A DNA stretch of 54,176 bases from a virus (lineage: Duplodnaviria > Heunggongvirae > Uroviricota > Caudoviricetes). Shown in pieces: positions 1-38,332 of the stretch (position 1 is its first letter; every line of letters starts with the position of its first letter). Position numbers and translations under genes: made by a program. The notes below the pieces were generated by a model. That model saw only the letters and a list, made by a program, of their open reading frames with translations, had not been told where the DNA came from and made no database searches. The stretch covers positions 1 through 54,176 of IMG/VR virus record IMGVR_UViG_2563366830_000017. One strand, given 5' to 3'.

Positions 1-1284
1 TTACTTCTTCGCCTCTGCAACCACTTTACTACCCACGCCGCGGTTATTGTATTCCCACATGCGGTTGTAGTTAGTGTCATTCAGATTGCGCTGTATTTCG
101 TCGTTATCATCTACGCTGCCGGTATTACCCGCAAACGGACGATTAGAGATCACCGCATCGGCCCACGGTTTAGCCGTGTTAAAACCTTCGTTGATGGCGC
201 TATCACGGATCACCACCTGACCGTTGGTATTGGCATCAACATCCAGCGAGCGGCCCAGTTGCGCCACACCATCACCGAAAGCATTGAAACGGCTGTTTAC
301 GGCGAGGAAACCGTAGTAAATGTTGGACAGCGTAGCCGGTGCAAACACATACGCTTCTTGCTGAGTACGTGAGTTCACCACGCGGAATTCGGTGTTATCG
401 AACACCACTGCGCCGCGACCAGAAACGATATCCACATCCCCTTCAATGTAGCTGTTGGTCACCAGCGTACGCGGCTGACGATTCGTTTCCAGACGGTTCT
501 GCACACCGCTGTTGGTGACAAAGAAGGTGTTCTGACGACCGAGAATGTTAACGTTGTTAATCTGTACCTGGTCACCATCAGTACGCAGTGCCACCGCCGG
601 ATGGTTACCTGCATCTACGCTATCGCCCAGCGTGTTTTCGATGGTCAGATTTTGCAGTTGCAGGCCATTGTTTTGTGACCAGAAGACCGCAGAGCAGAGA
701 ACACCGATACTGTCGCTGCGTTTGCTCTGGCAGCTATCGTACATATACCACGCTGGTTTACCTGGCATATATTTGCCGCGCGGGTTGACGTCGTGACGCC
801 AGTCGGCAGGGCTCATGCCACCATCAAGGGAAAGCCCAATCTTCACATCAATCGGTTTTTCACCTGTACCGTACAGAGTAATTCCACCCGGAGCGGCAGG
901 GACATATACCGTTCCCTGATACTCACCAGGCATCACGGCAATATACTGGCGCTTGTTGGTACGCTTGATAATTGCCGCATCTACCGCCGCCTGAATCGTG
1001 GTATGCGTTACACCTTGAGTGCCCGCCGGGCCGACAACAAAGTCAGGTTGCGCAGGCAGGGTAATCGGGGAAGGATTCCACGCTGCAGCACCTGGTGTCA
1101 GGGATGCAAAATAGTGTTGAGCATCGAAATTCTGCGCTTCTTTTGCCGACAGAATCGGGCGAGAAGAGGTACCAGGCGCGGTTTGATCAGAAGGACGTTG
1201 ATCGGGCGGGGTTGAGCTACAGGCGGTCAGCGTCACGCCAAAAGCCAATGCCAGCGCCAGACGGGAAACTGAAAATGTGTTCAC
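1..1284 (-). CDS. ybhC: Host gene: pectinesterase-like outer-membrane lipoprotein / acyl-CoA thioesterase YbhC, complete
   Basis: 427-aa ORF with lipoprotein-type signal peptide (MNTFSVSRLALALAFGVTLTAC); recognised as the gene flanking attB-lambda; sits immediately outside the att core. Confidence 0.85.
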   Translation of the reverse strand: MNTFSVSRLALALAFGVTLTACSSTPPDQRPSDQTAPGTSSRPILSAKEAQNFDAQHYFASLTPGAAAWNPSPITLPAQPDFVVGPAGTQGVTHTTIQAAVDAAIIKRTNKRQYIAVMPGEYQGTVYVPAAPGGITLYGTGEKPIDVKIGLSLDGGMSPADWRHDVNPRGKYMPGKPAWYMYDSCQSKRSDSIGVLCSAVFWSQNNGLQLQNLTIENTLGDSVDAGNHPAVALRTDGDQVQINNVNILGRQNTFFVTNSGVQNRLETNRQPRTLVTNSYIEGDVDIVSGRGAVVFDNTEFRVVNSRTQQEAYVFAPATLSNIYYGFLAVNSRFNAFGDGVAQLGRSLDVDANTNGQVVIRDSAINEGFNTAKPWADAVISNRPFAGNTGSVDDNDEIQRNLNDTNYNRMWEYNNRGVGSKVVAEAKK

Positions 1285-2685: not shown

Positions 2686-2707
2686 CGCAAAGTCTCCGCA
2701 ATTACAC

Positions 2708-2733
2708 GCAAGAAAAAACCGCCATCAGGCGGC
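2708..2733 (-). terminator. Hairpin plus T-run on minus strand (rho-independent terminator-like)
   Basis: Minus-strand reading GCCGCC-TGAT-GGCGGT followed by TTTTTT; overlaps stop of small ORF 2725..2892. Confidence 0.4.
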
Positions 2734-2892
2734 TTGGTGTTCTTTCAGTTCTTCAATTCGAATATTGGTTACGTCTGCATGTGCTATCTGCGCCCACAGC
2801 ATCCAGTGGTTATAGCAGTCGCTGATGTTCTCGGCTTCGATAACTCTGTTGAATGGTTCTCCATTCCATTCACCTGTAACTCGGAAGTGCAT
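2725..2892 (-). CDS. Small hypothetical protein (55 aa), b-region
   Basis: ATG-initiated ORF MHFRVTGEWNGEPFNRVIEAENISDCYNHW... translated by hand; below ORF-track cutoff. Confidence 0.35.
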   Translation of the reverse strand: MHFRVTGEWNGEPFNRVIEAENISDCYNHWMLWAQIAHADVTNIRIEELKEHQAA

Positions 2893-3240
2893 TTATCATC
2901 GCCATAAAACAAAACTCGCCGTAGCGAGTTCAGATAAAAGAAAACCCGCACTCGGCGGGTTCGCATTCGTTCAAATTGCGTTTACTTCTTGGCGTTCTGT
3001 TCATCCATATCGATATACCATGGGTTGCTTCCCTTGGGCATGTTTAACGACTGCTCGCGATAGTATCTGATGCGCTCCATGAAATACTCGCGTGAGTGCT
3101 CAGGTTGCTCTCATGATACCTGCTCAGTGATAACAGGTATGTTAAGGCGCTCTCTGTACTCCATGCCTGATGCTGCAAGGTCAACGTTTACCTTGTTCTG
3201 TTTTTCTTTCGATTTCTCGGCGATGTTATGCCTGACATTG

Positions 3241-3525
3241 TCAACCCGCCTCCTTCTGAACATAACGGTTATAAATCAGTCCCTGAGGGCCATAAGGAAG
3301 CGGGATGTGCAACTCCTCTGGTTCAGAAACTATCCATTCCCCGGCCATCTCCGCTGGAGAGGTAATGATAAGTTGTTTGCTAATAAAAGGACCACTCCTC
3401 TCAACAACAAGCTTACCATCTTCATTAATAAAAGCTTGGATGTCAGGTGTGCTTCCACACTTGGTGATGCAGCGTTTGAACATTTTGTGTCCCCCCATTT
3501 TATGGACGGGGTAATTATAACACAT
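3241..3525 (-). CDS. Hypothetical b-region protein (start uncertain; internal Met candidates)
   Basis: 94-aa ORF in the position of lambda ea8.5; contains CxxC pair (CITKCG). Confidence 0.45.
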   Translation of the reverse strand: MCYNYPVHKMGGHKMFKRCITKCGSTPDIQAFINEDGKLVVERSGPFISKQLIITSPAEMAGEWIVSEPEELHIPLPYGPQGLIYNRYVQKEAG

Positions 3526-3609
3526 TGAAATATAGTAATATTTGACGTAGATTTCTTTTGATCTATAAGCGATTTTTTAATGCTTTTAAGTTATAAATAC
3601 TTGTTTTCA

Positions 3610-4185
3610 TCACCCATCTTGCTGCGGTGCTACTATTGAAAAGTACTCACACCCTTTAGCCCAAATAGTTTTGATAGTTGTCCAACTGACTGGAACCTTG
3701 ATTTCGATTCTTCCGCTGCCGTCACAAGTTTCGCAATCATCATCACCAAAGCATTCCGGGCAGCTTATAAACGTAGTTTCTGAAAATTCACCGGATAGCA
3801 CACCCTTAGCGCCGTTCTCAGCGGTTAGTTTCTTCGGCACTATAACCCAACCATCCGGAGTTACCGGAGAATTGCCATTTATATCGAAGTTTGGCTCTGC
3901 GTCCTGAACCAGGAGGATGTAACCATTCTTGGCAGTATCAAGTTCTAACGCCTCGGTGACGGTACCGAAATAGCGATTACCTAAATCCGCATCACAAGTG
4001 CTTACATCAATGGAAACCTCCATGCCTTCGATTAATTCTGGCAAGTTGTAAGTTTGGCTTACAGGTTCTGCTCCCAGTGATGCCAGTGCAATTCGTGCCA
4101 GTTCCATTTGTTCGCCACGAGTAAGCCCGTTTTCAAGCGGATTTTTAATGAACAATTCAATACGTTCTTTGGTAATAGTGGTCAT
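3610..4185 (-). CDS. Hypothetical protein with C-terminal Cys-rich motif (CPECFGDDDCETCDGSG)
   Basis: 191-aa ORF, tightly packed in minus-strand operon; zinc-ribbon-like CxxC...CxxC spacing seen in translation. Confidence 0.55.
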   Translation of the reverse strand: MTTITKERIELFIKNPLENGLTRGEQMELARIALASLGAEPVSQTYNLPELIEGMEVSIDVSTCDADLGNRYFGTVTEALELDTAKNGYILLVQDAEPNFDINGNSPVTPDGWVIVPKKLTAENGAKGVLSGEFSETTFISCPECFGDDDCETCDGSGRIEIKVPVSWTTIKTIWAKGCEYFSIVAPQQDG

Positions 4186-4195
4186 TTGTTAGTCC

Positions 4196-4993
4196 TTAAA
4201 CTGCTAGTTGCAATTGCATTTCAAAGCGGTCGCGTTGTTCACAATACGCAAGAGAACCAGGGCTATTGTGTGCCTCAATCCGTTCTACCATTAATGCTGC
4301 GCGTGTCTCTTTACTTGCAGGTGCATAAGCCCCAGACCAGGCTTTATCAATACCGATGTTTCGAGCGACGTTCGTACTATCTGCGCTGGCTAAGGGTAAT
4401 TTTGTGAATATCAGCGGATTTAACATGCGCAATCCATGTAGTTTCGTAACCGGCTGACCATGCCCATCAACAATGTGACGAATCAGGTCTTTCATTCTGG
4501 CTACCGCAAGAGTTGGGCGCTTTACGTCATAGTCGCCACAACTACCGATAGCCACTCGCGGAAACTCATTGCACAAATGAATAAATCGCTCGTCACTTTC
4601 ATTCATGTGCCACACTGGAACGCCAGCTAGTTTTCCGTGAGGCCACTCATTCAGAAGCGCATCATTTTCCTCCTCTCCGCCATCAATAACATCCGGGATA
4701 ATGGCAAAATCGAATCCTGGGTGATTCTTCCAGCGAGCAACAAACTCGTAGTAATCGCTCCAGTCGATTTTGTTTTTGCCAGCTGCTTTCCAGGCGGTGA
4801 ATGCACCGTTGTCCAGCGCGAACGACTGACAGTATTCAGTCGCGAGATTGATCTGGCCTGAATGCGCAAAACTGATAAACGCATGTCGCCCTTTCCATGC
4901 TCTCATTGCGCACGTATCAGGAGTAATAGGCCCACCGTGGTAGTGAATCATCTCACTCTCCTTTGATGCGAATGCCAGTAGCGCGGATTGCAT
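4196..4993 (-). CDS. Hypothetical protein (265 aa), b-region accessory gene
   Basis: Long ORF in operon with neighbours; no family confidently recognised. Confidence 0.55.
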   Translation of the reverse strand: MQSALLAFASKESEMIHYHGGPITPDTCAMRAWKGRHAFISFAHSGQINLATEYCQSFALDNGAFTAWKAAGKNKIDWSDYYEFVARWKNHPGFDFAIIPDVIDGGEEENDALLNEWPHGKLAGVPVWHMNESDERFIHLCNEFPRVAIGSCGDYDVKRPTLAVARMKDLIRHIVDGHGQPVTKLHGLRMLNPLIFTKLPLASADSTNVARNIGIDKAWSGAYAPASKETRAALMVERIEAHNSPGSLAYCEQRDRFEMQLQLAV

Positions 4994-5360
4994 CGATGAC
5001 TTCAGAAACTTTGTATGCCATTACCGTTTGGTAATCATCGTGAAAATCTGTTCGATGAAGCATGCTGCTACGTTCCGGGAGCAGTATTTCCCGCGCTTCC
5101 AGTTCTGCAATGCGCTTTTTTGCTGCTTCCAGTTCATCCAGTAATTCCAGCACGGTAGCCGGATTAGCCTTGGCAACAAAATCCCGGACTGGCTTACAAT
5201 CAATCTCCGCAATGGGTTGATACGATGTGTAGCCATGCTGTCTTGTATAACTACCGTGACGAATAACGAAAAAATCACCATTTATTTTTTTAGCCTGCCA
5301 CTTATCTTCACCGGCTTTCTCTGCCGCTTCACGCAGTGCCTGAGAGTTAATTTCGCTCAC
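4953..5360 (-). CDS. Ea22-like protein (Ead/Ea22 family)
   Basis: N-terminus MSEINSQALREAAE and C-terminus IRIKGE match my recollection of lambda Ea22 termini; coiled-coil-like middle. Confidence 0.6.
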   Translation of the reverse strand: MSEINSQALREAAEKAGEDKWQAKKINGDFFVIRHGSYTRQHGYTSYQPIAEIDCKPVRDFVAKANPATVLELLDELEAAKKRIAELEAREILLPERSSMLHRTDFHDDYQTVMAYKVSEVIDAIRATGIRIKGE

Positions 5361-5578
5361 GTCGAACCTCTCTGTTTACTGATAAGCTCCAGATCTTGCT
5401 GGCAACTGGCACAAGTCCGACAACCCTGAACGGCCAGTCGTCTTCGTTCATCTATCGGATCGCCACACTCACAACAATGAGTGGCAGATATAGCCTGGTG
5501 GTTCAGGCGGCGCATTTTTATTGCTGTGTTGCGCTGTAATTCTTCAATTTCTGATGCTGAATCAATTATGTCTGCCAT
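5357..5578 (-). CDS. TraR/DksA-family C4 zinc-finger protein (lambda orf73-like)
   Basis: 73-aa ORF with CCECGDPIDERRR...CRTCASCQ motif typical of TraR/DksA zinc finger. Confidence 0.75.
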   Translation of the reverse strand: MADIIDSASEIEELQRNTAIKMRRLNHQAISATHCCECGDPIDERRRLAVQGCRTCASCQQDLELISKQRGST

Positions 5579-5676
5579 CTTTCATTAATCCCTGAATTGT
5601 TGGTTAATACGCTTGAGGGTGAATGCGAATAATAAAAAAGGAGCCTGTAGCTCCCTGATGATTTTGCTTTTCATGT

Positions 5677-5892
5677 TCACCGTTCCTTAAAGACGCCGTT
5701 CAACATGCCGATCGCCAGGCTTAAATGAGTCGGTGTGAATCCCATCAGCGTTACCGTTTCGCGGTGCTTCTTTAGTACGCTACGGCAAATGTAATCGACG
5801 TTTTTATCCGGAAACTGCTGTCTGGCTTTTTTGATTTCAGAATTAGCCTGACGGGCAATGCTGCGAAGGGCGTTTTCTTGCTGAGGTGTCAT
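5677..5892 (-). CDS. Hypothetical small protein
   Basis: ORF track 5677..5958; internal Met (MTPQQENALRSIARQ...) chosen as likelier start. Confidence 0.35.
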   Translation of the reverse strand: MTPQQENALRSIARQANSEIKKARQQFPDKNVDYICRSVLKKHRETVTLMGFTPTHLSLAIGMLNGVFKER

Positions 5893-5968
5893 TGAACAAG
5901 CCCCATGTCGGCAAGCATAAGCACACAGAATATGAAGCCCGCTGCCAGAAAAATGCATTCAGTGGTTG

Positions 5969-6160
5969 TCATACCTGGTCTCTCTCATCTGCTTCTGCTT
6001 TCGCCACCATCATTTCCAGCTTTTGTGAAAGGGATGCGGCTAACGTATGAAATTCTTCGTCTGTTTCTACTGATATTGGCACAAACCTGACTCCAATTTG
6101 AGCGAGGCTATGTGCCATCTCGATACTCGTTCTTAACTCAACGGGAGATGCTTTGTGCAT
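5969..6160 (-). CDS. Hypothetical small protein (63 aa)
   Basis: ORF in operon context upstream of exo. Confidence 0.35.
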   Translation of the reverse strand: MHKASPVELRTSIEMAHSLAQIGVRFVPISVETDEEFHTLAASLSQKLEMMVAKAEADERDQV

Positions 6161-6311: not shown

Positions 6312-6992
6312 TCATCGCCATTGCTCCCCAAATACAAAACCAATTTCAGCCAGTGCCTCGTCCATTTTTTCGATGAACTCCGGCACCATCTCGTCAAAAC
6401 TCGCCATGTACTTTTCATCCCGCTCAACCACGACATAATGCAGGCCTTCACGCTTCATACGCGGGTCATAGTTGGCAAAGTACCAGGCATCTTTTCGCGT
6501 CACCCACATGCTGTACTGCACCTGGGCCATGTAAGCCGACTTTATGGCCTCGAAACCACCGAGCCGGAACTTCATGAAATCCCGGGAGGTAAACGGGCAT
6601 TTCAGCTCAAGGCCATTGCCGTCACTGCATAAACCATCGGGAGAGCAGGCGGTACGCATACTTTCGTCGCGATAGATGATCGGGGATTCAGTAACATTCA
6701 CGCCGGAAGTGAATTCAAACAGAGTTCTGGCGTCGTTCTCGTACTGTTTTCCCCATGCCAGCGCCTTAGCATTAACTTCCGGAGCCACACCGGTGCAAAC
6801 CTCAGCCAGCAGGGTGTGGAAGTAGGACATTTTCATGTCAGGCCACTTTTTTCCGGAGCGGGGTTTTGCTATCACATTGTGAACTTCTGAAGCGGTGATG
6901 ACGCCGAGCCGTAATTTGTGCCACGCATCATCCCCCTGTTCGACAGCTCTCACGTCGATTCCGGTACGCTGCAGGATAATGTCCGGTGTCAT
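6312..6992 (-). CDS. exo: Lambda exonuclease (Red-alpha)
   Basis: 226-aa [43 protein letters not shown]... matches lambda Exo. Confidence 0.97.
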
Positions 6993-7774
6993 GCAGCCAC
7001 CTTCTGCTCAGTGGCTTTCTGTTTCAGGAATCCAAGAGCTTTCACTGCTTCGGCCTGTGTCAGTTCTGACGATGCGCGAATGTCGCGGCGAAATATCTGG
7101 GAACAGAGCGGCAATAAGTCGTCATCCCATGTTTTATCCAGGGCAATCAGCAGAGTGTTAATCTCCTGCATGGTTTCATCGTTAACCGGAGTGATGTCGC
7201 GTTCCGGCTGACGTTCTGCAGTGTATGCGGTATTTTCGACAATGCGCTCGGCTTCATCCTTGTCATAGATACCCGCAAATCCGAAGGCCAGACGGGCACA
7301 CTGAATCATGGCTTTATGCCGTAACATCCGTTTGGGATGCGACTGCCACGGCCCCGTAATTTCTCTGCCTTCGCGGGTTTTGAATGGTTCGCGGCGGCAT
7401 TCATCCATCCACTCGGTAACGCAGATCGGATGATTACGGTCCTTGCGGTAAATCCGGCATGTACAGGATTCATTGTCCTGCTCAAAGTCCATGCCATCAA
7501 ACTGCTGGTTTTCATTGATGATGCGGGACCAGCCATCAACGCCCACCACCGGAACGATGCCATTCTGCTTATCAGGAAAGGTGTAAATTTCTTTCGTCCA
7601 CGGATTAAGGCCGTACTGGTTGGCAACGATCAGTAATGCGATGAACTGCGCATCGCTGGCATCACCTTTAAATGCCGTCTGGCGAAGAGTGGTGATCAGT
7701 TCCTGTGGGTCGACAGAATCCATGCCGACACGTTCAGCCAGCTTCCCAGCCAGCGTTGCGAGTGCTGTACTCAT
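6989..7774 (-). CDS. bet: Recombination protein Bet (Red-beta)
   Basis: 261-aa [44 protein letters not shown]... matches lambda Bet. Confidence 0.97.
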
Positions 7775-7779
7775 CCGTT

Positions 7780-8076
7780 TTATACCTCTGAATCAATATC
7801 AACCTGGTGGTGAGCAATGGTTTCAACCATGTACCGGATGTGTTCTGCCATGCGCTCCTGAAACTCAACATCGTCATCAAACGCACGGGTAATGGCTTTT
7901 TTGCTGGCCCCGTGGCGTTGCAAATGATCGATGCATAGCGATTCAAACAGGTGCTGGGGCAGGCCTTTTTCCATGTCGTCTGCCAGTTCTGCCTCTTTCT
8001 CTTCACGGGCGATCTGCTGGTAGTGACGCGCCCAGCTCTGAGCCTCAAGACGATCCTGAATGTAATAAGCGTTCAT
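7780..8076 (-). CDS. gam: RecBCD inhibitor Gam (short 98-aa form only)
   Basis: [38 protein letters not shown]... matches lambda Gam; in-frame stop upstream prevents the 138-aa long form. Confidence 0.9.
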
Positions 8077-8838: not shown

Positions 8839-9219
8839 TCAGTCAGCCCAACCTGATTTCGAGTTTATTTGGGTTTCTGACATTGTGTATTTCTTAATCG
8901 TGTCATCGTTAAAAAGAATAGTAAGTTCTTTTTTCGTACCGTTCGTTCCATTATGGAATAATCCATAGAATGGAATAAAAGTGGTGCCATTAACTTTTAC
9001 TTTTGCAAAGGCGTACTTCCAGATCTCGTTTCCACTGTCAGTATATGAAACAGCATCAGGAGAACCAAAGTAAGATTTAACCTCATTCTTGGTTGTTTTA
9101 CCTTCCTGAAGTTTAGACTGGACACTAATTTCAGTTTCATTTTTGAGTTGCTGGTTGCCTGAAGAAGCACACCCAGCCAATACAGATGCCATCATGGCAG
9201 CGATTAGGATTTTTCTCAT
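8839..9219 (-). CDS. Lipoprotein (signal peptide plus lipobox Cys), moron between immunity gene and pL
   Basis: MRKILIAAMMASVLAGCASS lipoprotein signal; AT-rich relative to neighbours; own terminator. Confidence 0.7.
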   Translation of the reverse strand: MRKILIAAMMASVLAGCASSGNQQLKNETEISVQSKLQEGKTTKNEVKSYFGSPDAVSYTDSGNEIWKYAFAKVKVNGTTFIPFYGLFHNGTNGTKKELTILFNDDTIKKYTMSETQINSKSGWAD

Positions 9220-9448: not shown

Positions 9449-10138
9449 TTAACCATGCTTCCTGTACGTCTGCGGCATGCTTCCAATGACCTTACCGAAT
9501 ATGAACACCCGGTTCATCTCGTCTTTCTCGATCGGGTCCCACGGCGAGTAGCTCTTGTTATCAGAGATAACCAGCAGCTTATCCTTCATCATTTGAAGAC
9601 GTTTTACATGGGCAGTGTCGTCGTACAGAAACGCATAGATGCCATCACCGTCGAAAGATTTAACAGTGATATCAACGAACAGCAGGTCACCTGGTTCGAT
9701 CGTCCCTGACATGCTGTCACCTCGCACGTTAATGATGCGGATATTTTCCGCCTTCCTGCCATCGAACATGTGACGAGCATCGTCAAACGAGTACTCAACC
9801 GAGCGTAGAACTTCTACAAACTCACGGTTGATTACACCTGGCCCGGCACTGACTTCTATATCAAGAACGTCAATTTTGAAGTATTTGGAATGGCTGACAG
9901 TTGATTGTATTGGTTGCACTGTACTGTCTGACATATTTCCAACGCCAGAAGATAACCATTCTGCGCGCACACCCAAAGCGTTCGCGATCTCCACGATTTT
10001 AGTTGTTTGGTTAGCTTTCCCTGTTTCGATTTTCTGAATAGCAGCTTGGCTAACCCCGACCAAATCCCCAAGCGCCTTTTGTGTAAGGCCTCGCGCTAAT
10101 CTGGCTTCTTTAAGTCTTTCTGAGAGTGTTGTTTTCAT
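9449..10138 (-). CDS. cI: CI-type repressor (HTH-XRE N-domain plus LexA/S24 peptidase-like C-domain)
   Basis: 229-aa ORF; N-terminal LTQKALGDLVGVSQAAIQKIETGK HTH; C-terminal S24-like region; divergent from cro; not lambda immunity. Confidence 0.85.
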   Translation of the reverse strand: MKTTLSERLKEARLARGLTQKALGDLVGVSQAAIQKIETGKANQTTKIVEIANALGVRAEWLSSGVGNMSDSTVQPIQSTVSHSKYFKIDVLDIEVSAGPGVINREFVEVLRSVEYSFDDARHMFDGRKAENIRIINVRGDSMSGTIEPGDLLFVDITVKSFDGDGIYAFLYDDTAHVKRLQMMKDKLLVISDNKSYSPWDPIEKDEMNRVFIFGKVIGSMPQTYRKHG

Positions 10139-26753: not shown

Positions 26754-27029
26754 ATGTCGATGTACACAACCGCCCAGCTGCTGGCGGCAAATGAGCAGAA
26801 ATTTAAGTTTGATCCGCTGTTTCTGCGTCTCTTTTTCCGTGAGAGCTATCCCTTCACTACGGAGAAAGTCTATCTCTCACAAATTCCTGGACTGGTAAAC
26901 ATGGCGCTGTACGTTTCGCCGATTGTTTCCGGTGAGGTTATCCGTTCCCGTGGCGGCTCCACCTCTGAATTTACGCCGGGATATGTCAAACCCAAGCACT
27001 TAGCATGGCTTTCTGAGGCTTTCGTGTAG
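26754..27029 (+). pseudogene. E: Major capsid protein E, 5-prime fragment (82 lambda-like codons then 10 foreign codons and stop) created by insertion
   Basis: MSMYTTAQLLAANEQKFKFDPLFLRLFFRESYPFTT...GYVKPKH matches lambda E; then LAWLSEAFV-stop. Confidence 0.9.
26989..26998. repeat. Left copy of 10-bp direct repeat AACCCAAGCA at island junction
   Basis: Identical 10-mer at 38323..38332; lambda-like E sequence ends here. Confidence 0.75.
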
Positions 27030-27110
27030 TTGCTGGTTTTTACACTTAATCTTTTGATAATAAAGAATAAGTTTATCTGGCGCTTTCACTGAATTTTCCT
27101 CGTTATCTGT

Positions 27111-27146
27111 GTGTTGCAATCATCTCTGTATTGCAGCTTGTATTGC
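27111..27146 (+). repeat. Candidate integrase arm-type sites: three copies of TGT(A/G)TTGC(A) near left end
   Basis: GTGTTGCA, TGTATTGCA, TGTATTGC read in sequence; two more TGTATTGCA copies at 38227..38247. Confidence 0.45.
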
Positions 27147-27161
27147 TTTTTGGGGCTAAAA

Positions 27162-28397
27162 ATGGCTGGCGAGAACAAACTGAGCGACAAAGCGCTTAAA
27201 GGATATCTGGGGAAACCCAGAGAAAAGCAGATCACCATTGCTGATGGAAAGGGGCTTTCTATTCGTGTGAGTACTAAAGGGGCTGTGAGCTTTGTTTTCT
27301 TCTACAGGTTAGCAGGTGGCCGGGCTGCTCCGGTCTGGCTAACGTTGGGTAAATATCCTGATATGTCACTCAAACAGGCAAGGGAAAAGCGCGACGAGTG
27401 CCGTGGTTGGTTGGCTGACAAACGTGATCCGCGTATCCAGATTAAGATTCAGGCTGAAGAACGCTTAAAGCCGGTCACAGTGGAGGATGCACTAAATTAC
27501 TGGTATGAAAACTACTGTAAGGTGCGTCGTAAAACTCATGCTGTAACGCTTGGCAGATTTCGAAAGCATATCTTTCCCTATATCGGTCATTTGCCCGTAA
27601 ATGACACTCACCTATATGAATGGCTGGACTGTTTTGACCGAATTAAACGTAATGCACCAGTTATGGCGGCGTATGTTTTTTCTGACACTAAATTAGCTCT
27701 TCGTTTTTGTCGGGTACGCCAGTACGCGACGTGTGATGCTTTAAAGGATTTGCGCATGAGTGATGTGGGGCAGATTGCAGGTAAGCGGGATCGGGTTCTG
27801 GATGAAGCCGAACTCGGCCAGCTCTGGAAGGCAATTTTTGTCGAGCCTGATTTAAAACTAATGTCTGAATACACGCGAAAAATGTTTGTGCTTTGTACAG
27901 TATTTGGATGTCGAATGAGTGAAGCCCGATTATCAGAATGGAGCGAATGGGATCTCGAAAGTTGGGTTTGGACTGTGCCAAAAGATCACTCAAAAACTGG
28001 TGTTGAAATCGTCAGACCAGTACCTGAAATTCTACGACAGTGGGTAACGGATGTTCACGAAGAGACAAAACATACTGGTTATGTGCTGGGAAGTCTGCGA
28101 ATTAGAGAAAGCGTAAGCAAGATTGGGGGGAAAATCGGTAAACGTTTGGGCCATGAAAAACAATGGTCACTACACGACCTTAGAAGAACGCTATCTACTC
28201 ATCTAAGTGATCTCGGTGTTGAATTTTATGTAGTAGAACAACTGTTAGGCCATGCGCTACCTGGCGTGGCAGGTGTTTACAACCGGAGTAAGTTTATGGC
28301 TAAAAAACTGGATGCTCTGGAACTCTGGACTACATATCTCAATAGCATCGCAGCTGCTGATTCAAAAGTGACAATCCTCAAACAAAAGGCTGGTTAG
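27162..28397 (+). CDS. Tyrosine integrase, P4-type (island-encoded)
   Basis: 411 aa from ATG; C-terminal HxLRxT...HxxxxxxxxY-like catalytic region (HELR...HDLRRT...LGHA...VY); adjacent to left junction. Confidence 0.85.
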   Translation: MAGENKLSDKALKGYLGKPREKQITIADGKGLSIRVSTKGAVSFVFFYRLAGGRAAPVWLTLGKYPDMSLKQAREKRDECRGWLADKRDPRIQIKIQAEERLKPVTVEDALNYWYENYCKVRRKTHAVTLGRFRKHIFPYIGHLPVNDTHLYEWLDCFDRIKRNAPVMAAYVFSDTKLALRFCRVRQYATCDALKDLRMSDVGQIAGKRDRVLDEAELGQLWKAIFVEPDLKLMSEYTRKMFVLCTVFGCRMSEARLSEWSEWDLESWVWTVPKDHSKTGVEIVRPVPEILRQWVTDVHEETKHTGYVLGSLRIRESVSKIGGKIGKRLGHEKQWSLHDLRRTLSTHLSDLGVEFYVVEQLLGHALPGVAGVYNRSKFMAKKLDALELWTTYLNSIAAADSKVTILKQKAG

Positions 28398-28398
28398 C

Positions 28399-28629
28399 AT
28401 GAAAAAAATGGCAATTGTTGATAAAAAGGGTCTGGAGTACATTCCTAACATTGACCGAATGATCCGTGAGAAAGAATGTCGGGAGCTAACTACTCTTGCG
28501 AACAGCACACGCTGGAAGCTGGAGAAGGAAGGAAAATTTCCTAAGCGGATCAAGATTGGTTCCACTGCTGTTGCATATCGTCTTTCAGAAGTGCAGGCAT
28601 GGATTCGAGGTGAGTGGGAAACAACTTAA
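28399..28629 (+). CDS. AlpA-family HTH regulator/excisionase-like protein
   Basis: 76 aa; placed immediately after integrase as in P4-like and PICI elements. Confidence 0.7.
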   Translation: MKKMAIVDKKGLEYIPNIDRMIREKECRELTTLANSTRWKLEKEGKFPKRIKIGSTAVAYRLSEVQAWIRGEWETT

Positions 28630-28636
28630 CTATTAG

Positions 28637-29467
28637 GTGGGCATTGTGGCTATATTTCATTATACAGATCTTTTTGGTTTGAAAGGTATATTAGACTCTA
28701 ATTCTTTATGGGCTACAAACATATATTTCTTAAATGATAAAGAGGAGTCTAACCATGGATGTGAATGCTTTCGAAATACAATTAAAATAGTTGATGACAA
28801 TATCATTCCAAAAGATAAGAAAACTATTTTGCTCAAGTCTCTTGACATGTATGAGAAAGGGAGGTTACAAAAAGAAAAAGGGATTGATAAACATGTTTAT
28901 AGCATCTCTTTTTGTAAGGAAAACGATAAGTTAAGTCAGTGGAGAGGTTACGGAAATAAACAGGGTGTTTGCATTGAGTTTGATGCGGATGAACTTGTGA
29001 GCTTTTCTCAAAATATTTATTTAAATTGTGTTGCACATGATGTTATATATTCAAATAATAACGATATTACTAAGATGAGTAAGGAGTTGGGAGAGTTTTT
29101 TTCTTGTAATGGTATTAACATTAAAGAAATGAATGATCATTTTGTAACAATGGTCTCTACGTATCAATTTATATCTAAATACATCCCATTTTTTAAACAT
29201 CCTAGTTTTATCGAAGAGAATGAATTTAGATTGGTATTTACTCCGTGGATGCAAATGCCAGATGTGCACTTCAGAATAAATAATAATGGAATCATCCCTT
29301 ATATCATCATTGATAATAAAGATAATAGAAAGTTACCAATTAAAAGCATTACAATTGGCCCGACAAACGATTATGATTTCATTGAGGCTGGTATAAAAAT
29401 GTTCTTGGATTCAAGAGGATTTAGTTCTGTGGAAATTAAATCCTCATCAATTCCATTCAGGGGGTAA
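28637..29467 (+). CDS. DUF2971-like protein (AT-rich cargo gene)
   Basis: N-terminal FHYTDLFGLKGILDSNSLWATNIYFLNDKEE resembles the DUF2971 signature as I recall it; GTG start; low GC. Confidence 0.55.
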   Translation: MGIVAIFHYTDLFGLKGILDSNSLWATNIYFLNDKEESNHGCECFRNTIKIVDDNIIPKDKKTILLKSLDMYEKGRLQKEKGIDKHVYSISFCKENDKLSQWRGYGNKQGVCIEFDADELVSFSQNIYLNCVAHDVIYSNNNDITKMSKELGEFFSCNGINIKEMNDHFVTMVSTYQFISKYIPFFKHPSFIEENEFRLVFTPWMQMPDVHFRINNNGIIPYIIIDNKDNRKLPIKSITIGPTNDYDFIEAGIKMFLDSRGFSSVEIKSSSIPFRG

Positions 29468-29598
29468 GGATTAACACTTTTAATCTGTGATATTATAAAA
29501 ATGGTGGATAAAGGCGACCAGAATTGGTCGCCAATGTGAGTATATAGTTAGCCTTAATCAGAATACGAGGTTATCGCCTGATAGGCAATGTGAACAGT

Positions 29599-29955
29599 TC
29601 AATATTTAGGTGGTTCAACAAGAGCGTTTATCATTGCTCTCAAATTATCGCGAACACTTATCCAAGTCTGTTCTGCTCGTTCTAACTCATCAGTGTACAA
29701 CTTTAATGTTTTATCTATGCCATATGTGGCTATTAAATTTATAGCTTCTTGTAATTTTTCAGGATTATTCCTTCTTGGGGGAGTGAATATACCACGGATT
29801 TTTCCGGTAATTAAAGCTTTACGGTGTCTACATAGAATACCTTTACTTCCTGCTGGACAATTACAAGTCATGATTAGCGAGCCAGAATCGTTTGATACAG
29901 TGACTATGTATACATCCAAACTACTGCTACTTGTTGCGAAGAATTCGTATTTCAT
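29599..29955 (-). CDS. SWIM-type zinc-finger protein (CxCx8CxH), AT-rich cargo gene
   Basis: Motif CNCPAGSKGILCRH seen in translation; convergent with DUF2971-like gene. Confidence 0.5.
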   Translation of the reverse strand: MKYEFFATSSSSLDVYIVTVSNDSGSLIMTCNCPAGSKGILCRHRKALITGKIRGIFTPPRRNNPEKLQEAINLIATYGIDKTLKLYTDELERAEQTWISVRDNLRAMINALVEPPKY

Positions 29956-29982
29956 GTGTTAGCTCCTTGACTTCAATTATTC

Positions 29983-30114
29983 TTATCCTTTTGGTTCAAT
30001 ACCGCGCCGTAGCAGCTCTTTGCGCCCTAATTCTTTAAGCCAGTTGGCTAGGCTTATGCCGTCGCTCTGCGCTTCTTTGTCGAATTGCTCTTTTAGCTCT
30101 GGAGAAATTCGCAT
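29983..30114 (-). CDS. Small basic protein, possible ribbon-helix-helix repressor (43 aa from ATG)
   Basis: MRISPELKEQFDKEAQSDGISLANWLKELGRKELLRRGIEPKG; divergent from downstream plus-strand operon. Confidence 0.4.
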   Translation of the reverse strand: MRISPELKEQFDKEAQSDGISLANWLKELGRKELLRRGIEPKG

Positions 30115-30313
30115 TCTGAATTGTGGAGATTGCCCATCACCCTTAGGACTTTTATCGCGTTTGATCGTTGACAAGTGACCACCTATTGAATTAGCCTTTT
30201 CATTGTTAGGTGGCCACCTTAACACGGGGGCACTTAAAAAAGCAAAGCCCGAAGGTGCTGGGAACACCAACGGGCTTCTAACCACCAACGATAGCAACAG
30301 TATCGAGGTAGCT

Positions 30314-30517
30314 ATGAGAAATCATACCACACACCCGCAAGGGCGGGACCCGCACAACCTGAATAAATACATCTGGCGTTTTATCGCCTTGAGTACGGCA
30401 CAACCGCGCATGATTACCATCGAGGCCATCAGCGAACAGGAAGCCCGCCAGCAATCCCCAACTGGCTGCGTGATGGTATTCGCCGCCCGTATTCGTCAGG
30501 AGGTGTGCCGTGCTTAA
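30314..30517 (+). CDS. Hypothetical small protein, first gene of island early operon
   Basis: ORF track 30203..30517; ATG at 30314 chosen. Confidence 0.4.
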   Translation: MRNHTTHPQGRDPHNLNKYIWRFIALSTAQPRMITIEAISEQEARQQSPTGCVMVFAARIRQEVCRA

Positions 30518-30695
30518 AACCTTCCGTGTATTTGCCCGAGCTGTTAACCCACTGGGCCACACAATTGGTATCACTCAGAACGTGAAGGCTGTTAATGTTC
30601 AGACGGCTATTGCTGCGGTGAGAAGCGAATCATCAGAATATGGCTTATCACAAGTCATTATTTCAGCAGTGTATGAATTAAAAGAGGTGCATTAA
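30510..30695 (+). CDS. Hypothetical small protein
   Basis: 61-aa ORF, overlapping starts/stops in operon. Confidence 0.45.
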   Translation: MLKTFRVFARAVNPLGHTIGITQNVKAVNVQTAIAAVRSESSEYGLSQVIISAVYELKEVH

Positions 30696-30886
30696 TGCAG
30701 GAAATCACATTACACGAAGCCGCTGAACGTGCGCACCAGACAGAAATTATTTGCCGCCTTCTTGAGGTATACCCGAACAAAATTACAGATGCTGATATAT
30801 CCGCGCTGGCGAGCCTACTGGCGCGCCTTTCGGGAAGTGTCGCTAGTTTCCTGATTGAGGAAGAAAGTAAGCTGGTGGGGGATTAA
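30695..30886 (+). CDS. Hypothetical small protein
   Basis: 63-aa ORF, translationally coupled in operon. Confidence 0.45.
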   Translation: MQEITLHEAAERAHQTEIICRLLEVYPNKITDADISALASLLARLSGSVASFLIEEESKLVGD

Positions 30887-31108
30887 ATGAATACAGAACG
30901 GGAAGTCTTTTTTAAATTGTTAGCATGTGCAGAAAGTCCATTAACTTTAAATAATTCAGCAAAAGCAATATTAAATATGTGGCTTGATTGCATAAATGAC
31001 AATGAAGATGCAAATATTGCTTATGGCCTGTTGTCACTTATTGATGAATCAGCAGAAAAACTCAATGACGCAATAAATAGTGCCCTGCTATCAAATAAGT
31101 CGAGTTAA
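30887..31108 (+). CDS. Hypothetical small protein
   Basis: 73-aa ORF in operon. Confidence 0.45.
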   Translation: MNTEREVFFKLLACAESPLTLNNSAKAILNMWLDCINDNEDANIAYGLLSLIDESAEKLNDAINSALLSNKSS

Positions 31109-31125
31109 GTCGAGGAATAAATAAT

Positions 31126-31425
31126 ATGGAAATGAAAAATTCTGGCTTTATTGCCAGCGGCCCCGCTCGGCCTGAATTTATGAACGGCGATATTTACCGC
31201 GATAAATACGGCGGCACGGTAACGATTAAAGGCGTGGCAGAACGGCGCATCACTTACCGCCGTGAGGGGTATAGCTATGACTGCGTGATGCCTGTTTATC
31301 AGTTCCGGCGTGATTTTTCCCTGGTATATGCCGCACCCCGCAGTAAGCCCATCAGCAGGGAAAAAGCGCGGGGAAACATCCAGAAAATGAAAAGCATGAT
31401 TAACGCATTCAGGGGCAAAAAATGA
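31126..31425 (+). CDS. Hypothetical protein (99 aa)
   Basis: ORF immediately upstream of and overlapping primase start. Confidence 0.5.
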   Translation: MEMKNSGFIASGPARPEFMNGDIYRDKYGGTVTIKGVAERRITYRREGYSYDCVMPVYQFRRDFSLVYAAPRSKPISREKARGNIQKMKSMINAFRGKK

Positions 31426-33173
31426 AACTGGCACCGAACTTAAAAAAACAGCCACGCGACAGACTGACAGAGGTAATCATCTTTGCAGGTAGTGATGCGT
31501 GGAGCCATGCGAAAGAGTGGCGGGAATGGGCGGGTAAACATATTGCCGCCGACGATGTGCCGCCTGTCGTGCTGGCTGATGAGCAACTGAAAAATATCAC
31601 CGATTACCGGATCATTGATGAAGATCGTCAGTGTGTGCGTGTTTACCGCGCAGGACATATCACAGAGCACAGCATGACGCAGATTGTTACGTTACTGGCT
31701 GTGGCTGGAGTGAAGACCGTACACGAATACGCGGGGATTACTGACACCAGCCCAGTGGATTTATCCGAGCAGTTGCCGCGACTCAAAGAGGAATGCGAGC
31801 GTGGGGAAAGTCTGGTGCTTAATCTTCCGACGAAGCAAAAGGCGCAACTTTCACAGATGGCAGACAGTGAACGTGCACAACTACTTGCCGATCGCTTTGA
31901 TGGTGTGTGTGTTCATGCAGAAAGTGAAATCGTCCACGTATGGCGCGGCGGGGTATGGTGTCCGGTCAGCACAATGGAGCTGAGCCGCGAAATGGTGGCG
32001 ATCTATTCAGAGCACAGGGCCACGTTCAGCAAACGTGTAATCAATAACGCCGTGGAAGCGTTAAAAGTTATTGCCGACCCCATGGGGGAGCCGTCCGGTG
32101 ATTTGCTACCGTTCACTAATGGTGTGCTTAACCTGAAAACGGGGGAATTTTCTCCGCACTCGCCGGAGCACTGGAGCACCACGCACAATGGCATTGAGTA
32201 CACGCCACCAGTAGCAGGGGAAAACATCCGCGATAATGCGCCAAATTTCCATAAATGGCTTGAACATGCCGCAAGAAAAGACCCGCGCAAGATGATGCGT
32301 ATATGTGCCGCGTTATACATGATTATGGCGAACCGCTACGACTGGCAGATGTTCATTGAGGCCACCGGAGACGGGGGAAGCGGTAAGAGTACATTTACCC
32401 ATATTGCCACCCTGCTTGCTGGCAAACAGAACACCGTAAGCGCGGAGATGACATCACTCGATGATGCAGGAGGGCGCGCGCAGGTTGTCGGGAGTCGTCT
32501 TATCGTCCTTGCCGATCAGCCGAAATATACGGGGGAAGGCACGGGCATCAAGAAAATCACGGGAGGCGATCCCGTTGAAATTAACCCGAAATATGAGAAG
32601 CGATTCACGACGATAATAAGGGCGGTGGTACTGGCAACCAATAACGACCCGATGATCTTTACCGAACGGGCCGGAGGTGTGTCACGCCGTCGGGTGATTT
32701 TCCGGTTCGACAACATTGTAAGGGAGGACGAAAAAGACAAGGAATTACCGGAAAAGATAGCGGCAGAAATCCCCGTAATTATCCGCCGCTTGCTGGCTAA
32801 TTTTGCTGACCCTGAAAAGGCACGGGCTTTATTACTGGAACAGCGTGACGGTGATGAAGCTCTGGCAATAAAGCAGCAAACGGATCCGGTTGTTGAGCTT
32901 TGCGCGGCGCTGGAGTTTCTGGAGGAAGCTCGTGGGCTAATGATGGGCGGTGGTGGTGACACCGTGAAGTACACGACCAGAAACAGCCTTTACCGTGTCT
33001 ATATGGCCTTCATGGCATACACAGGAAAGGGGAAATGTTTGAGCGTGAATGAGTTCGGAAAGGCTATGAGGTCAGCGGCGAAAGTTTACGGATATGAATA
33101 TATTACGCGAAAAGTTAAGGGAGTCACGCAGACCAACGCAACGACTACTGATGATTGCGATGCGTTTTTATAA
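31422..33173 (+). CDS. Primase/replication protein (P4-alpha C-terminal-like, with Walker A GDGGSGKST)
   Basis: 583 aa; P-loop GDGGSGKS seen; followed by iteron array. Confidence 0.8.
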   Translation: MKLAPNLKKQPRDRLTEVIIFAGSDAWSHAKEWREWAGKHIAADDVPPVVLADEQLKNITDYRIIDEDRQCVRVYRAGHITEHSMTQIVTLLAVAGVKTVHEYAGITDTSPVDLSEQLPRLKEECERGESLVLNLPTKQKAQLSQMADSERAQLLADRFDGVCVHAESEIVHVWRGGVWCPVSTMELSREMVAIYSEHRATFSKRVINNAVEALKVIADPMGEPSGDLLPFTNGVLNLKTGEFSPHSPEHWSTTHNGIEYTPPVAGENIRDNAPNFHKWLEHAARKDPRKMMRICAALYMIMANRYDWQMFIEATGDGGSGKSTFTHIATLLAGKQNTVSAEMTSLDDAGGRAQVVGSRLIVLADQPKYTGEGTGIKKITGGDPVEINPKYEKRFTTIIRAVVLATNNDPMIFTERAGGVSRRRVIFRFDNIVREDEKDKELPEKIAAEIPVIIRRLLANFADPEKARALLLEQRDGDEALAIKQQTDPVVELCAALEFLEEARGLMMGGGGDTVKYTTRNSLYRVYMAFMAYTGKGKCLSVNEFGKAMRSAAKVYGYEYITRKVKGVTQTNATTTDDCDAFL

Positions 33174-33179
33174 AAAATG

Positions 33180-33430
33180 GCAATGGTTATCTACCTTGTC
33201 TACCTGACTGAAAGAAAATACTTTTATTTCAATGTATTAATGCAGGTAGATAACTATTTTTCACTGTCTACCTGTTATCTACCTTATCTACCCATTTTTG
33301 TAGACAGGTAAGGAGACGGGTAGAGATGAGGTAGACAGCTATTTGGGGCTGTCTACCTCCCTGAAACCCGCGCCATTACTGGCCTGATAACTAATCAGGT
33401 AGACAAGGTAGACAAGGTGGTGGTGCACAA
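33180..33430. repeat. ori: Island replication-origin iterons (GGTAGACA / TGTCTACC family, both orientations)
   Basis: At least 10 copies of (A)GGTAGAC(A) or its complement within 250 bp directly after primase gene. Confidence 0.75.
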
Positions 33431-33462
33431 AAAACTTTTTAAACGAGGGGGTAAAAATAAAA

Positions 33463-33720
33463 ATGCACACATCAGGAAAACTGAACAAACATATAAAGCC
33501 ACATTACCGCGCCCTTGATATGGCTGAACACTGGCTAAGGGTGGCGATTAAGGCAATAGACCGCAACGCCGGGGAAGGATACGCGAAAGCACATCCCGAA
33601 CTGATAAGCGCATTCATGACAACGGCGGCTGCAAACTTTGCCACGCTGACCGAACGGGAGATTGCTGAAGCGGAGGAAGTGACAACAATCAATATTAAGT
33701 CCGGAGAGCAGGCAGCATGA
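33463..33720 (+). CDS. Hypothetical protein (85 aa)
   Basis: ORF overlapping ssb start. Confidence 0.45.
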   Translation: MHTSGKLNKHIKPHYRALDMAEHWLRVAIKAIDRNAGEGYAKAHPELISAFMTTAAANFATLTEREIAEAEEVTTINIKSGEQAA

Positions 33721-34166
33721 CGGCGCAAATATCAGTTTACGGGCGGTTGGTGGACGACCCGCAGACAAAACAGACCAGCAAGGGCACCCCCATGACGCTG
33801 GCGCGTATGGCGGTATCACTGCCCTGCAGTCAGTCGGATGACGGTCTGGCGACGTTGTGGTTATCTGTCCTGGCGTTTGGCAGACAAGCCGACGCGCTGG
33901 CAAAGCATCACAAAGGCGAACTCCTGAGCGTGGCGGGTAACATGCAGATGAGCCAGTGGACTGGACAGAACGGCGAAACGCGGCAGGGCTGGCAGGTTAT
34001 CGCAGACAGCGTAATCAGTGCGCGATCGGTGCGACCGGGCGGCAAAAAAGGCCAACAGGGGCAGGCTACTGACGCACTGAACAGAGCAAAACAACAGGCA
34101 GATCAGCAAGGAAGCCAGCCACCAGAGGGAGATAATGAGCAATGGGGAGATGATATCCCGTTTTAA
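33717..34166 (+). CDS. ssb: Single-stranded DNA-binding protein
   Basis: OB-fold-like N-region, Gln/Gly-rich linker and acidic C-terminal tail ending DDIPF. Confidence 0.85.
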   Translation: MTAQISVYGRLVDDPQTKQTSKGTPMTLARMAVSLPCSQSDDGLATLWLSVLAFGRQADALAKHHKGELLSVAGNMQMSQWTGQNGETRQGWQVIADSVISARSVRPGGKKGQQGQATDALNRAKQQADQQGSQPPEGDNEQWGDDIPF

Positions 34167-34382
34167 ATATTGCCAATAAAAAAAGCCGGAAAAAATAAAT
34201 TTTCCGGCATGCTACATAAATCCCGACCAAAGGGAGTGAAGATATTAACACTAATTGTCCGCACTGAAGTTGTCACCCCAAAACTTTATACAACATTGCA
34301 CTCGGTTGCATGTGTTCGCATGACAAATATCGGTGATAGCATATATCCACAATTATTTTTAATGAATGCAAAGAGGATGCGT

Positions 34383-35423
34383 ATGGTTGATTTATATTCG
34401 CCTACTCAGCTTGTACAGGTAGTTAATGCTGTAGATGTACAAAAACAACTAAATGCGTTATTTACCAGTTTGTTTTTTACTCGCTCGGTAATGTTTGAAT
34501 CGCGCGATATTATTCTTGATACAATCGACGATCCAAATATCCCAATTGCAGCGTTTTGTTCTCCTATGGTGGGTAGTAAAGTTTCACGTGACGAAGGGTA
34601 CGAATCAAAAACAATTCGTCCAGGCTATATGAAGCCGAAAAGCAGCATTGATCCAAATAAGTTAGCTGTGCGCCCTGCTGGTGTGTCACCTGAGCAATAC
34701 AATGCTTTTGGGGCGCGTAATATTAAAGTTAAACAGGCGATTGTAAATCAGGCTAAAGCTATTCGTGCACGTATTGAATGGCTTGCTGTTCAGGCAATCA
34801 CAACGGGGAAAAATATCATTGAGGGCGATGGTATTGAACGTTATGAGCTGGACTGGAATATAAAACCACAAAATATCATCACTCAGTCTGGCGGTACTGA
34901 GTGGTCAGGTAAGGATAAAGAAACTTTTGATCCAAATGATGATATTGAGAGCTACGCAGAATTTAGTGAGGGCGTCACTAATATCATCATTATGGGTGGT
35001 AATGTATGGAAGAAATACCGTTCATTCAGAGCGATAAAAGAGGCTTTGGATACCCGTCGTGGTTCTAATTCCGAACTGGAAACGGCCCTTAAAGACCTTG
35101 GTGATTCGGTGAGTTTTAAAGGGTATATGGGCGATGTTGCGATTGTTGTTTACAGCGGGCGTTATACCGACGAGGACGGAACAGAAAAACATTTCCTTGA
35201 TCCTGATTTGATGGTGCTTGGCAATACGGCTCTTCAGGGGATTGTCGCCTATGGCGGTATTCAGGATCCGGAGCTAATCCGAATGGGGCTGACTAAAGCC
35301 GAACTTGCACCGAAAAACTATATTGTGCCTGGTGATCCGGCTATTGAATATGTGCAGACACATTCAGCACCACAGCCAATACCGGCCCGCATCAATCGTT
35401 TTGTTACCGTTCGCATTGGCTAA
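34383..35423 (+). CDS. Island-encoded major capsid protein, diverged homolog of lambda E
   Basis: Blocks shared with prophage E: NIITQSGGTEWSGKDKETFDPNDDIESYA, LDTRRGSNSELETALKDLG, YMGDVAIVVYSGRY, MVLGNT; ORF track 34170 start is upstream. Confidence 0.85.
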   Translation: MVDLYSPTQLVQVVNAVDVQKQLNALFTSLFFTRSVMFESRDIILDTIDDPNIPIAAFCSPMVGSKVSRDEGYESKTIRPGYMKPKSSIDPNKLAVRPAGVSPEQYNAFGARNIKVKQAIVNQAKAIRARIEWLAVQAITTGKNIIEGDGIERYELDWNIKPQNIITQSGGTEWSGKDKETFDPNDDIESYAEFSEGVTNIIIMGGNVWKKYRSFRAIKEALDTRRGSNSELETALKDLGDSVSFKGYMGDVAIVVYSGRYTDEDGTEKHFLDPDLMVLGNTALQGIVAYGGIQDPELIRMGLTKAELAPKNYIVPGDPAIEYVQTHSAPQPIPARINRFVTVRIG

Positions 35424-35432
35424 GGGGGAGCA

Positions 35433-35774: not shown

Positions 35775-35785
35775 AGGGGGATACA

Positions 35786-36169: not shown

Positions 36170-36194
36170 TGAAATTAGGGCCCGCTCTGGCTGG

Positions 36195-38322: not shown

Positions 38323-38332
38323 AACCCAAGCA
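38323..38332. repeat. Right copy of 10-bp direct repeat AACCCAAGCA at island junction
   Basis: Identical to 26989..26998; lambda-like E sequence resumes here. Confidence 0.75.

Follow-up and report, generated by a model that had tools for sequence, protein, structure and literature searches.

A probable singleton DpdA in the early left operon of a lambda-like Escherichia coli prophage

Here we report an analysis of the early left accessory genes of a lambda-like E. coli prophage, contained in the 54,176 nucleotides of IMG/VR record IMGVR_UViG_2563366830_000017 (positions 1 to 54,176; this whole stretch is referred to below as the window). The analysis centres on a 251-amino-acid (aa) protein that almost certainly belongs, on the strength of profile and motif comparisons, to the phage DpdA family, whose enzymes replace guanine in DNA by a 7-deazaguanine base, and that is predicted to be a DNA-guanine transglycosylase. 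The element occupies attB-lambda. In E. coli MS 196-1, DNA of 99.9-100% identity is found between ybhC and ybhB and carries the annotation of a lambda-like prophage. The gene order int, xis, accessory block, exo, bet, gam and cI-like repressor (Table 1), together with the MS 196-1 prophage between ybhC and ybhB, places the block in the exo-xis "ea" slot of the leftward early (pL) operon. In lambda this slot contains orf60a, orf63, orf61, ea22 and ea8.5, and the b region lies on the opposite side of attP, so that the "b-region" label under which an earlier note on this DNA had filed the block was wrong.

The gene encoding the 251-aa protein is slightly shorter than the longest open reading frame (ORF) at its position. 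Six ORFs are present in the block, all of them on the minus strand (Table 1). These include the 265-aa ORF; its true start, however, is at Met15 (position 4951), because the homologues all open with MIHYHGGP and are ~251 aa long, an AGGAG ribosome-binding site lies 5' of the Met15 ATG, this ATG falls one base past the stop codon of the Ea22-like gene (TGAgATG), and the annotation made by the NCBI Prokaryotic Genome Annotation Pipeline (PGAP) is the 251-aa form. Similarly, the products of the 94-aa and 93-aa ORFs of the block probably have 80 and 71 aa, respectively. The TraR, Ea22-like, 251-aa and 191-aa genes follow one another in that order with stops and starts that overlap or are nearly adjacent, and a sequence scan found neither a terminator-like hairpin on the coding (minus) strand nor a promoter-like site between them. 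Both ORFs are real genes: the 251-aa and the 191-aa protein each have over 7,800 matches among database proteins.

The 251-aa protein had been described as one that could not be placed in a family, which is true of Pfam, NCBIfam and PGAP only. Compared with PHROGs it matches phrog_887, "queuine tRNA-ribosyltransferase" (E 1.7e-103), and the experimentally validated DpdA of phage CAjan falls in the same PHROG 887 (E 8.2e-96). Alignment by hhalign of a profile from 41 close homologues (alignment A1) with CAjan DpdA gave 93.9% probability and an E-value of 1.5e-7, pairing ALD47NGAF with FLDSGAF, KLH172GL with KLHAF and SAD191ST with SCDSS. HMMER, run over all 1.84 billion representatives, found 1551 clusters (50% identity) that match the family at E ≤1e-3. 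Across a second alignment of 66 diverse members reaching down to 19% identity (A2), residues D47, H172, D191 and S192 are invariant in 66/66 sequences, with D87, H115, E118 and G136 near-invariant.

Escherichia phage CAjan (Seuratvirus, Queuovirinae) is the source of this validated DpdA, a dPreQ0 insertase. Deletion of dpdA abolishes dPreQ0 in CAjan DNA, in which ~32% of G is modified (PMC6884629). CAjan DpdA shares with the window protein its PHROG, the aligned Asp/His/Asp motifs and the lack of a zinc cluster. It differs in length (306 aa) and in sequence (19% identity in A2), and carries Ser at the position of D87, a residue near-invariant in the clade of the window protein. CAjan also has its own folE, queD, queC, queE and yhhQ genes beside dpdA. 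The DpdA of the Salmonella Montevideo Dpd system (PDB 7UI4), a bacterial member, is more distant: it has 413 aa, a structural zinc site and DpdA-specific insertions, is 14% identical to the window protein, requires the DpdB ATPase and sits in a restriction-modification island.

Read by eye, the order of motifs in the 251-aa protein is colinear with that in E. coli tRNA-guanine transglycosylase (TGT; the E. coli enzyme is Tgt), which runs DSGGF, FDEC, IIQGS, AVGG, LMGVG, FDCVMPTRNARN. In this reading LDNGAF stands opposite TDSGGF, IPDVI opposite IFDEC, VWH opposite IIQ, AIGS opposite AVGG, LHGL opposite LMGV, and ADSTNVARN opposite FDCVMPTRNARN. Because hhalign against Tgt alone failed, the mapping is a visual one with no computed alignment behind it, and it is from motif order that we infer a probable equivalence of D47, H172 and D191 with D95, H181 and D256 of 7UI4. 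In TGT and bacterial DpdA, one Asp serves as general acid/base and another as nucleophile (PMC10164549). Structure prediction, which the earlier note had proposed for both the 251-aa and the 191-aa protein, was productive for the former, whose AlphaFold2 model is a confident (beta/alpha) barrel (pLDDT 80.5, pTM 0.81), and failed for the latter, whose model is unusable (pLDDT 33.7). When structures were ranked against the 251-aa model, the longest aligned lengths were those of archaeosine TGT, bacterial TGT and QTRT2, at ranks 7, 8 and 15; the scores of unrelated TIM barrels ran up to 14.4, and Foldseek against the PDB returned generic TIM barrels only (E ≥1e-3). The predicted structure by itself is therefore consistent with a TGT-like barrel and not decisive.

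The window gene is an ortholog, from a lambda-like E. coli prophage, of singleton phage DpdAs that are already on record. It is called a singleton because the window contains no genes for the synthesis of 7-cyano-7-deazaguanine (preQ0): tblastn searches of the window with CAjan FolE, QueD, QueE, QueC and YhhQ found none. Hutinet et al. (2019) described, as a third group, 76 phages in which DpdA is encoded without any synthesis genes, and whose hosts encode the queuosine (Q) pathway; the DpdA-only phages in their Supplementary Data 1 include the Salmonella phages BTP1 (SIU02687/gp23) and SPN3UB, Shigella phage SfI, coliphage HK106, SEN1 and 7-11 (PMC6884629). Over 95% of the ORF, the 251-aa protein is 92.8% identical to its counterparts in BTP1 and SPN3UB; identity is 68% with that of SfI, and 37.6%, 35.5% and ~36% with those of SEN1, HK106 and 7-11, respectively. 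In BTP1 the gene occupies the same early-left slot, between Ea22-like and EaA genes, and BTP1, SPN3UB, SfI and HK106 likewise carry no preQ0 genes. In contrast to the BTP1 group, the window copy belongs to an E. coli prophage of the lambda type that occupies attB-lambda, and the EaA-type gene downstream of it has another C-terminal module. The allele is carried by 204 of 5,426 complete E. coli genomes, Shiga toxin-producing E. coli (STEC) included, and is named "hypothetical" by RefSeq in all 204. The copy in the Stx1a-converting phage EH2115 is 98.9% identical, and the allele is also found in O121 and O111 STEC genomes. More broadly, at least 583 viral contigs encode a relative.

Through fusions and neighbouring genes in relatives, the family is connected with both the 7-deazaguanine pathway and DNA modification. 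One relative (P0379, 335 aa) consists of QueD (PTPS, E 1.2e-24) fused to a DpdA-like domain, and another (P0359) of a Dam-type N6-adenine DNA methylase fused to such a domain. Neighbouring genes point the same way: a queD-like gene lies directly upstream of the homologue in Caulobacter phage DMCA and abuts it, a gene for a YhhQ/VUT preQ0 transporter does so in Pectobacterium phage PEAT2, and in a P2-like Shewanella prophage the second gene upstream of the homologue, beyond one small ORF, encodes a C5 DNA methylase. Among the 80 viral contigs closest to the window gene, no folE, queD, queE, queC or yhhQ homologue was found within 10 kb on either side.

On the analogy of characterised DpdA systems, we consider it somewhat probable that the 251-aa DpdA exchanges guanine in double-stranded DNA for host preQ0 or a derivative after induction, which would counter restriction. 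This compact relative of TGT, predicted to be a TIM barrel, would be made only when induction or infection sets off N-antiterminated transcription from pL, because its gene lies inside that operon and is coupled to its neighbours. By analogy with TGT and bacterial DpdA, guanine would be displaced by D191 as nucleophile, with D47 in the role of general acid/base, and the inserted base would be preQ0 or a close derivative. E. coli synthesises preQ0, and since the prophage carries no synthesis genes, the supply would come from the FolE/QueD/QueE/QueC pathway of the host. The enzyme would exchange a subset of guanines as phage DNA replicates, with host DNA unavoidably affected as well, and the resulting low-level or motif-specific mark on progeny DNA might blunt some restriction in the next host. 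A role for the gene in lysogenic conversion or defence was considered and rejected, as it lies inside the cI-repressed pL operon and has no promoter-like site of its own.

The DNA target, the preQ0 substrate and the protective effect are all read across to the window enzyme from its relatives. Validated phage DpdAs place 7-deazaguanines in phage DNA, which is thereby shielded from restriction (PMC6884629). On its own in E. coli, the DpdA of phage 9g introduces host preQ0 into plasmid DNA at 0.03-0.3% of G, and DpdA2 of phage nt-1 inserts host preQ0 but does not do so in a delta-queD host (PMC6884629). The earlier suggestion that the slot may hold anti-restriction or DNA-modification functions thus finds support for the 251-aa protein by DpdA homology, whereas nothing links the 191-aa protein to anti-defence. 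That the 251-aa enzyme modifies DNA at all we rate at a little above even, and that it does so to a protective level that is biologically useful is less likely than modification itself.

Several results weigh against this proposal. Searches of PDB sequences by phmmer and hmmsearch, whether with the single protein, A1 or A2, returned no TGT or DpdA; Pfam and NCBIfam show no TGT link, the scans of Pfam, NCBIfam and PADLOC giving no match to the 251-aa protein; and hhalign of A2 with the single sequence of E. coli Tgt reached 1.8% probability. The structural zinc site of TGT and bacterial DpdA (CxCxxC...H in TGT) is not present in the 251-aa protein, the sequence of which contains no Cys cluster, and CAjan DpdA is without this site too. 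Membership of the TGT family PF01702 was rejected on the combined evidence of no Pfam or NCBIfam match, no zinc site and the 1.8% probability. As regards DpdA itself, the Pfam and PDB negatives weigh little, because the validated CAjan DpdA fails the same searches, likewise having no Pfam or PDB sequence match. Measurements on singletons are a more direct concern: in virions of phage 7-11 dADG amounts to just 0.02% of G, and in phage Orion no modification was seen (PMC6884629), which makes the protective effect uncertain. The result for Orion is explained by its host, which has no preQ0. Salmonella phage 7-11 resembles the window prophage in being DpdA-only with an enterobacterial, preQ0-making host, but it is a lytic, virulent 90-kb phage rather than a lambdoid prophage. 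A literature search found no paper testing the enterobacterial singleton DpdA clade, and no experiments on DpdA in prophages, lysogens or BTP1.

A further point on the same side is that singleton DpdAs form separate clusters for Mycobacterium and for gamma-proteobacterial phages, flagged by Hutinet et al. (2019) as having possibly diverged in function (PMC6884629). This leads to the alternative that survives best, although we judge it unlikely: that the 251-aa protein is a diverged relative which keeps the fold and the acidic residues of DpdA and installs no 7-deazaguanine in phage DNA. Such a protein might serve another base as a DNA glycosylase or base-exchange enzyme, or might have marginal activity. 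It would sit well with the data on Orion and 7-11 and with the count of 0/80 closest loci with pathway genes nearby. It accords poorly with the strict conservation of the catalytic Asp/His set across the 1551 clusters, with the fusion or adjacency of family members to QueD and YhhQ, and with the preQ0-free host that accounts for the Orion negative (PMC6884629).

The gene for the 191-aa Cys-rich protein begins 10 nt after that for the 251-aa protein and has its own Shine-Dalgarno sequence. The protein matches phrog_60, a family of unknown function (E 1.4e-41), and has no match in Pfam, NCBIfam, PADLOC or PDB. The C-terminal CxxC...CxxC cluster to which the earlier note drew attention is real (CPECFGDDDCETCDGSG, C142-P-E-C145-F-G-D-D-D-C151-E-T-C154-D-G-S-G), and C142, C145, C151 and C154 are invariant among 27 homologues. 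These homologues combine a near-invariant C-terminal module of ~150 aa and an AEPVSQ linker with interchangeable N-termini (Ead/Ea22, DUF550, DUF551); in the window protein the first 42 residues share 90% identity with P22 EaA. Its N-terminus, linker motifs, module shuffling and exo-xis early-left slot, the latter as in BTP1, are shared with the EaA and Ead/Ea22 mosaic proteins of lambdoid and P22-like phages, whereas P22 and BTP1 EaA are without its C-terminal module, which contains a single DnaJ-type CxxCxGxG zinc knuckle. The full arrangement of the gene occurs in 47 complete E. coli genomes and fragments of it in 668. PGAP sometimes names the protein "molecular chaperone DnaJ", an identity that we reject since there is no J domain and no match to Pfam DnaJ or DnaJ_CXXCXGXG at E ≤0.1. 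It contains only two CxxCxGxG-like repeats (CPECFGDD and CETCDGSG) against four in the zinc domain of DnaJ, and comparison with that domain (1exk) gave E 7.3. The most that can be said from its sequence is that it appears to be a zinc-stabilised member of the shuffled EaA family.

Its gene lies immediately downstream of that for DpdA, and its CxxCxGxxxCxxCxGxG motif invites the idea that it acts as a DpdA partner, for example by supplying a zinc module in trans. In one metagenome contig (L008), a protein with a weak match to DnaJ_CXXCXGXG is encoded 2 kb from the gene for the QueD-DpdA fusion, which may be taken in favour of the same idea. We nevertheless regard a partnership as very improbable. 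Where there was room downstream to look, among 79 close viral loci, the zinc module lies 3' of DpdA in only 8, and BTP1 has a Cys-free EaA at that position; on these two grounds the 191-aa protein is not taken to be a DpdA partner. The module is also common without DpdA, its fragments being present in 668 E. coli genomes as against 204 for DpdA, and the validated CAjan DpdA functions without a zinc site. The protein in L008 (L008:16-729, Ga0452210_009018) has 237 aa and several CxxCxGxG-type repeats and is encoded upstream of the fusion gene; its resemblance to the zinc knuckle beside DpdA in the window is probably a coincidence.

Two remaining readings of the 251-aa protein can be treated briefly, and both are highly improbable. 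An action like that of Cap10 in type IV CBASS (cyclic oligonucleotide-based antiphage signalling system), in which a deazaguanine base is attached to protein instead of DNA, would call for a QueC-like Cap9 or a CD-NTase partner, and neither was found: CAjan QueC has no match in the window, no protein of the block matches PADLOC, and the neighbours are TraR, Ea22-like and EaA-like proteins in a phage early operon rather than a defence island. Profiles, moreover, group the 251-aa protein with the DNA-modifying phage DpdAs. Modification of host tRNA in the manner of TGT, altering translation during phage growth, is suggested by the distant relationship to TGT and by the PHROG and pharokka-style name "queuine tRNA-ribosyltransferase", but the protein has no zinc subdomain and no Pfam TGT match, the related 9g DpdA fails to complement an E. 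coli delta-tgt strain (PMC6884629), and the Dam methylase fusion and nearby C5 DNA methylase among the relatives indicate a DNA target.

Table 1. Genes at the left end of the prophage, from ybhC to the cI-like repressor, with coordinates in the window
Feature	Coordinates	Strand	Longest ORF	Assignment and remarks
ybhC	1-1284	-		opens the window
lambda-type integrase (int)	1419-2489
xis	2467-2685
55-aa protein between xis and accessory block	2725..2892	-		phrog_676, E 1.4e-39
DNA polymerase III theta (HolE/Hot-like) pseudogene	2982..3263	-		internal stop; PGAP on identical DNA in other genomes
80-aa protein	3241..3483	-	3241-3525 (94 aa)	phrog_9613, E 3e-51 over residues 13-94; PGAP start
191-aa protein, assigned to the EaA family as a mosaic	3610..4185	-	3610-4185	phrog_60
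Putative singleton DpdA-family gene, 251 aa	4196..4951	-	4196-4993 (265 aa)	PHROG 887; predicted DNA-guanine transglycosylase
Ea22-like protein, 135 aa	4953..5360	-	4953-5360	PF13935, E 2.6e-17; phrog_1667; GTG start overlapping TraR stop
TraR/DksA-type C4 zinc-finger protein, 73 aa	5357..5578	-	5357-5578	PF01258, E 5.1e-9; TIGR02419; also in lambda
Small lambda-like early protein, 71 aa (PGAP)	5677..5892	-	5677-5958 (93 aa)	phrog_303; lambda match 97%
exo	6312-6992
bet	6989-7774
gam	7780-8076
cI-like repressor	9449-10138

The Ea22-like protein and TraR-type zinc finger named in the earlier note were both borne out by Pfam (Table 1). The claim that the block differs from lambda stands for ~2700-5320, to which true divergence is confined, and not for the stretch with the TraR-type and orf61-like genes. 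Within 3200-6000 the lambda match covers 5319-6000 only, at 97% nucleotide identity, a stretch that takes in the TraR-like and orf61-like genes and the opening codons of ea22. The lambda records that match there annotate TraR/DksA at this position, and the TraR, orf61-like and DUF1382 genes are ~97% identical to their lambda counterparts. A terminator-like hairpin lies at 5638-5656, 3' of the small early gene, and three others (2962-2942, 2931-2912 and 2735-2716) surround the gene for the 55-aa protein. Also between xis and the accessory block, the theta-like peptide KVNVDLAASGMEYRERLNIPVITEQVS of the pseudogene stops prematurely.

The neighbourhood of the 80-aa ORF has features of its own. 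It includes an AT-rich spacer at 3484-3609 (GC 0.40), and a perfect extended -10 element (TGTTATAAT) is located at 3522-3514 on the minus strand, ~30 nt upstream of the ORF, a site that a two-hexamer promoter scan did not pick up. Judged by these sequence features, the gene may be a moron that has a promoter of its own and does not depend on pL for expression.

Two further observations concern other parts of the window. A 126-aa lipoprotein-like ORF at 8839-9219 on the minus strand, between the kil/gam region and the cI-like repressor, has a GC content of 0.38-0.41 and is named "outer membrane protein assembly factor BamE" in identical DNA; it is probably a lysogenic-conversion moron. Further along, the prophage's lambda-like major capsid gene (gpE) is interrupted by an 11.3-kb island at 26999-38322, with a 10-bp direct repeat (AACCCAAGCA) at the junctions (26989-26998 and 38323-38332). 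The prophage of E. coli MS 196-1, identical in other respects, lacks the island. Encoded on the island are a tyrosine integrase, a DUF2971 protein, a D5-like primase/helicase, a single-stranded DNA-binding protein (SSB), its own homologue of major capsid protein E and a 438-aa protein of unknown function. An identical island in E. coli TO73, where the capsid gene is split in the same way, is annotated in addition with Icd-like and head-decoration proteins, and at least 80% of the island is present in 29 complete genomes. It resembles a phage satellite whose integration site is the capsid gene of its helper.

Since RefSeq/PGAP, Pfam and NCBIfam leave the 251-aa gene as "hypothetical", giving it the correct name marks out the prophages that carry it as ones whose DNA may be hypermodified. 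This prophage, in the tractable E. coli/lambda background, would be a convenient test case for DNA modification by singleton DpdAs. Were the enzyme active, the DNA of temperate lambdoid and Stx phages would bear an anti-restriction mark fuelled by the host, which would matter for the host range of phages, the spread of stx genes and sequencing artefacts. The wider idea that lambdoid prophages, including Shiga toxin-converting ones, use a lone DpdA and host queuosine precursors to place a sequence-specific, induction-only 7-deazaguanine mark on DNA is a tentative one, which we think somewhat less probable than its opposite. If true, hypermodified DNA would be a trait of ordinary temperate coliphages, and the mark would affect which strains are open to lysogeny and how far these phages are exposed to modification-dependent defences such as Dag1 and GrwAB.

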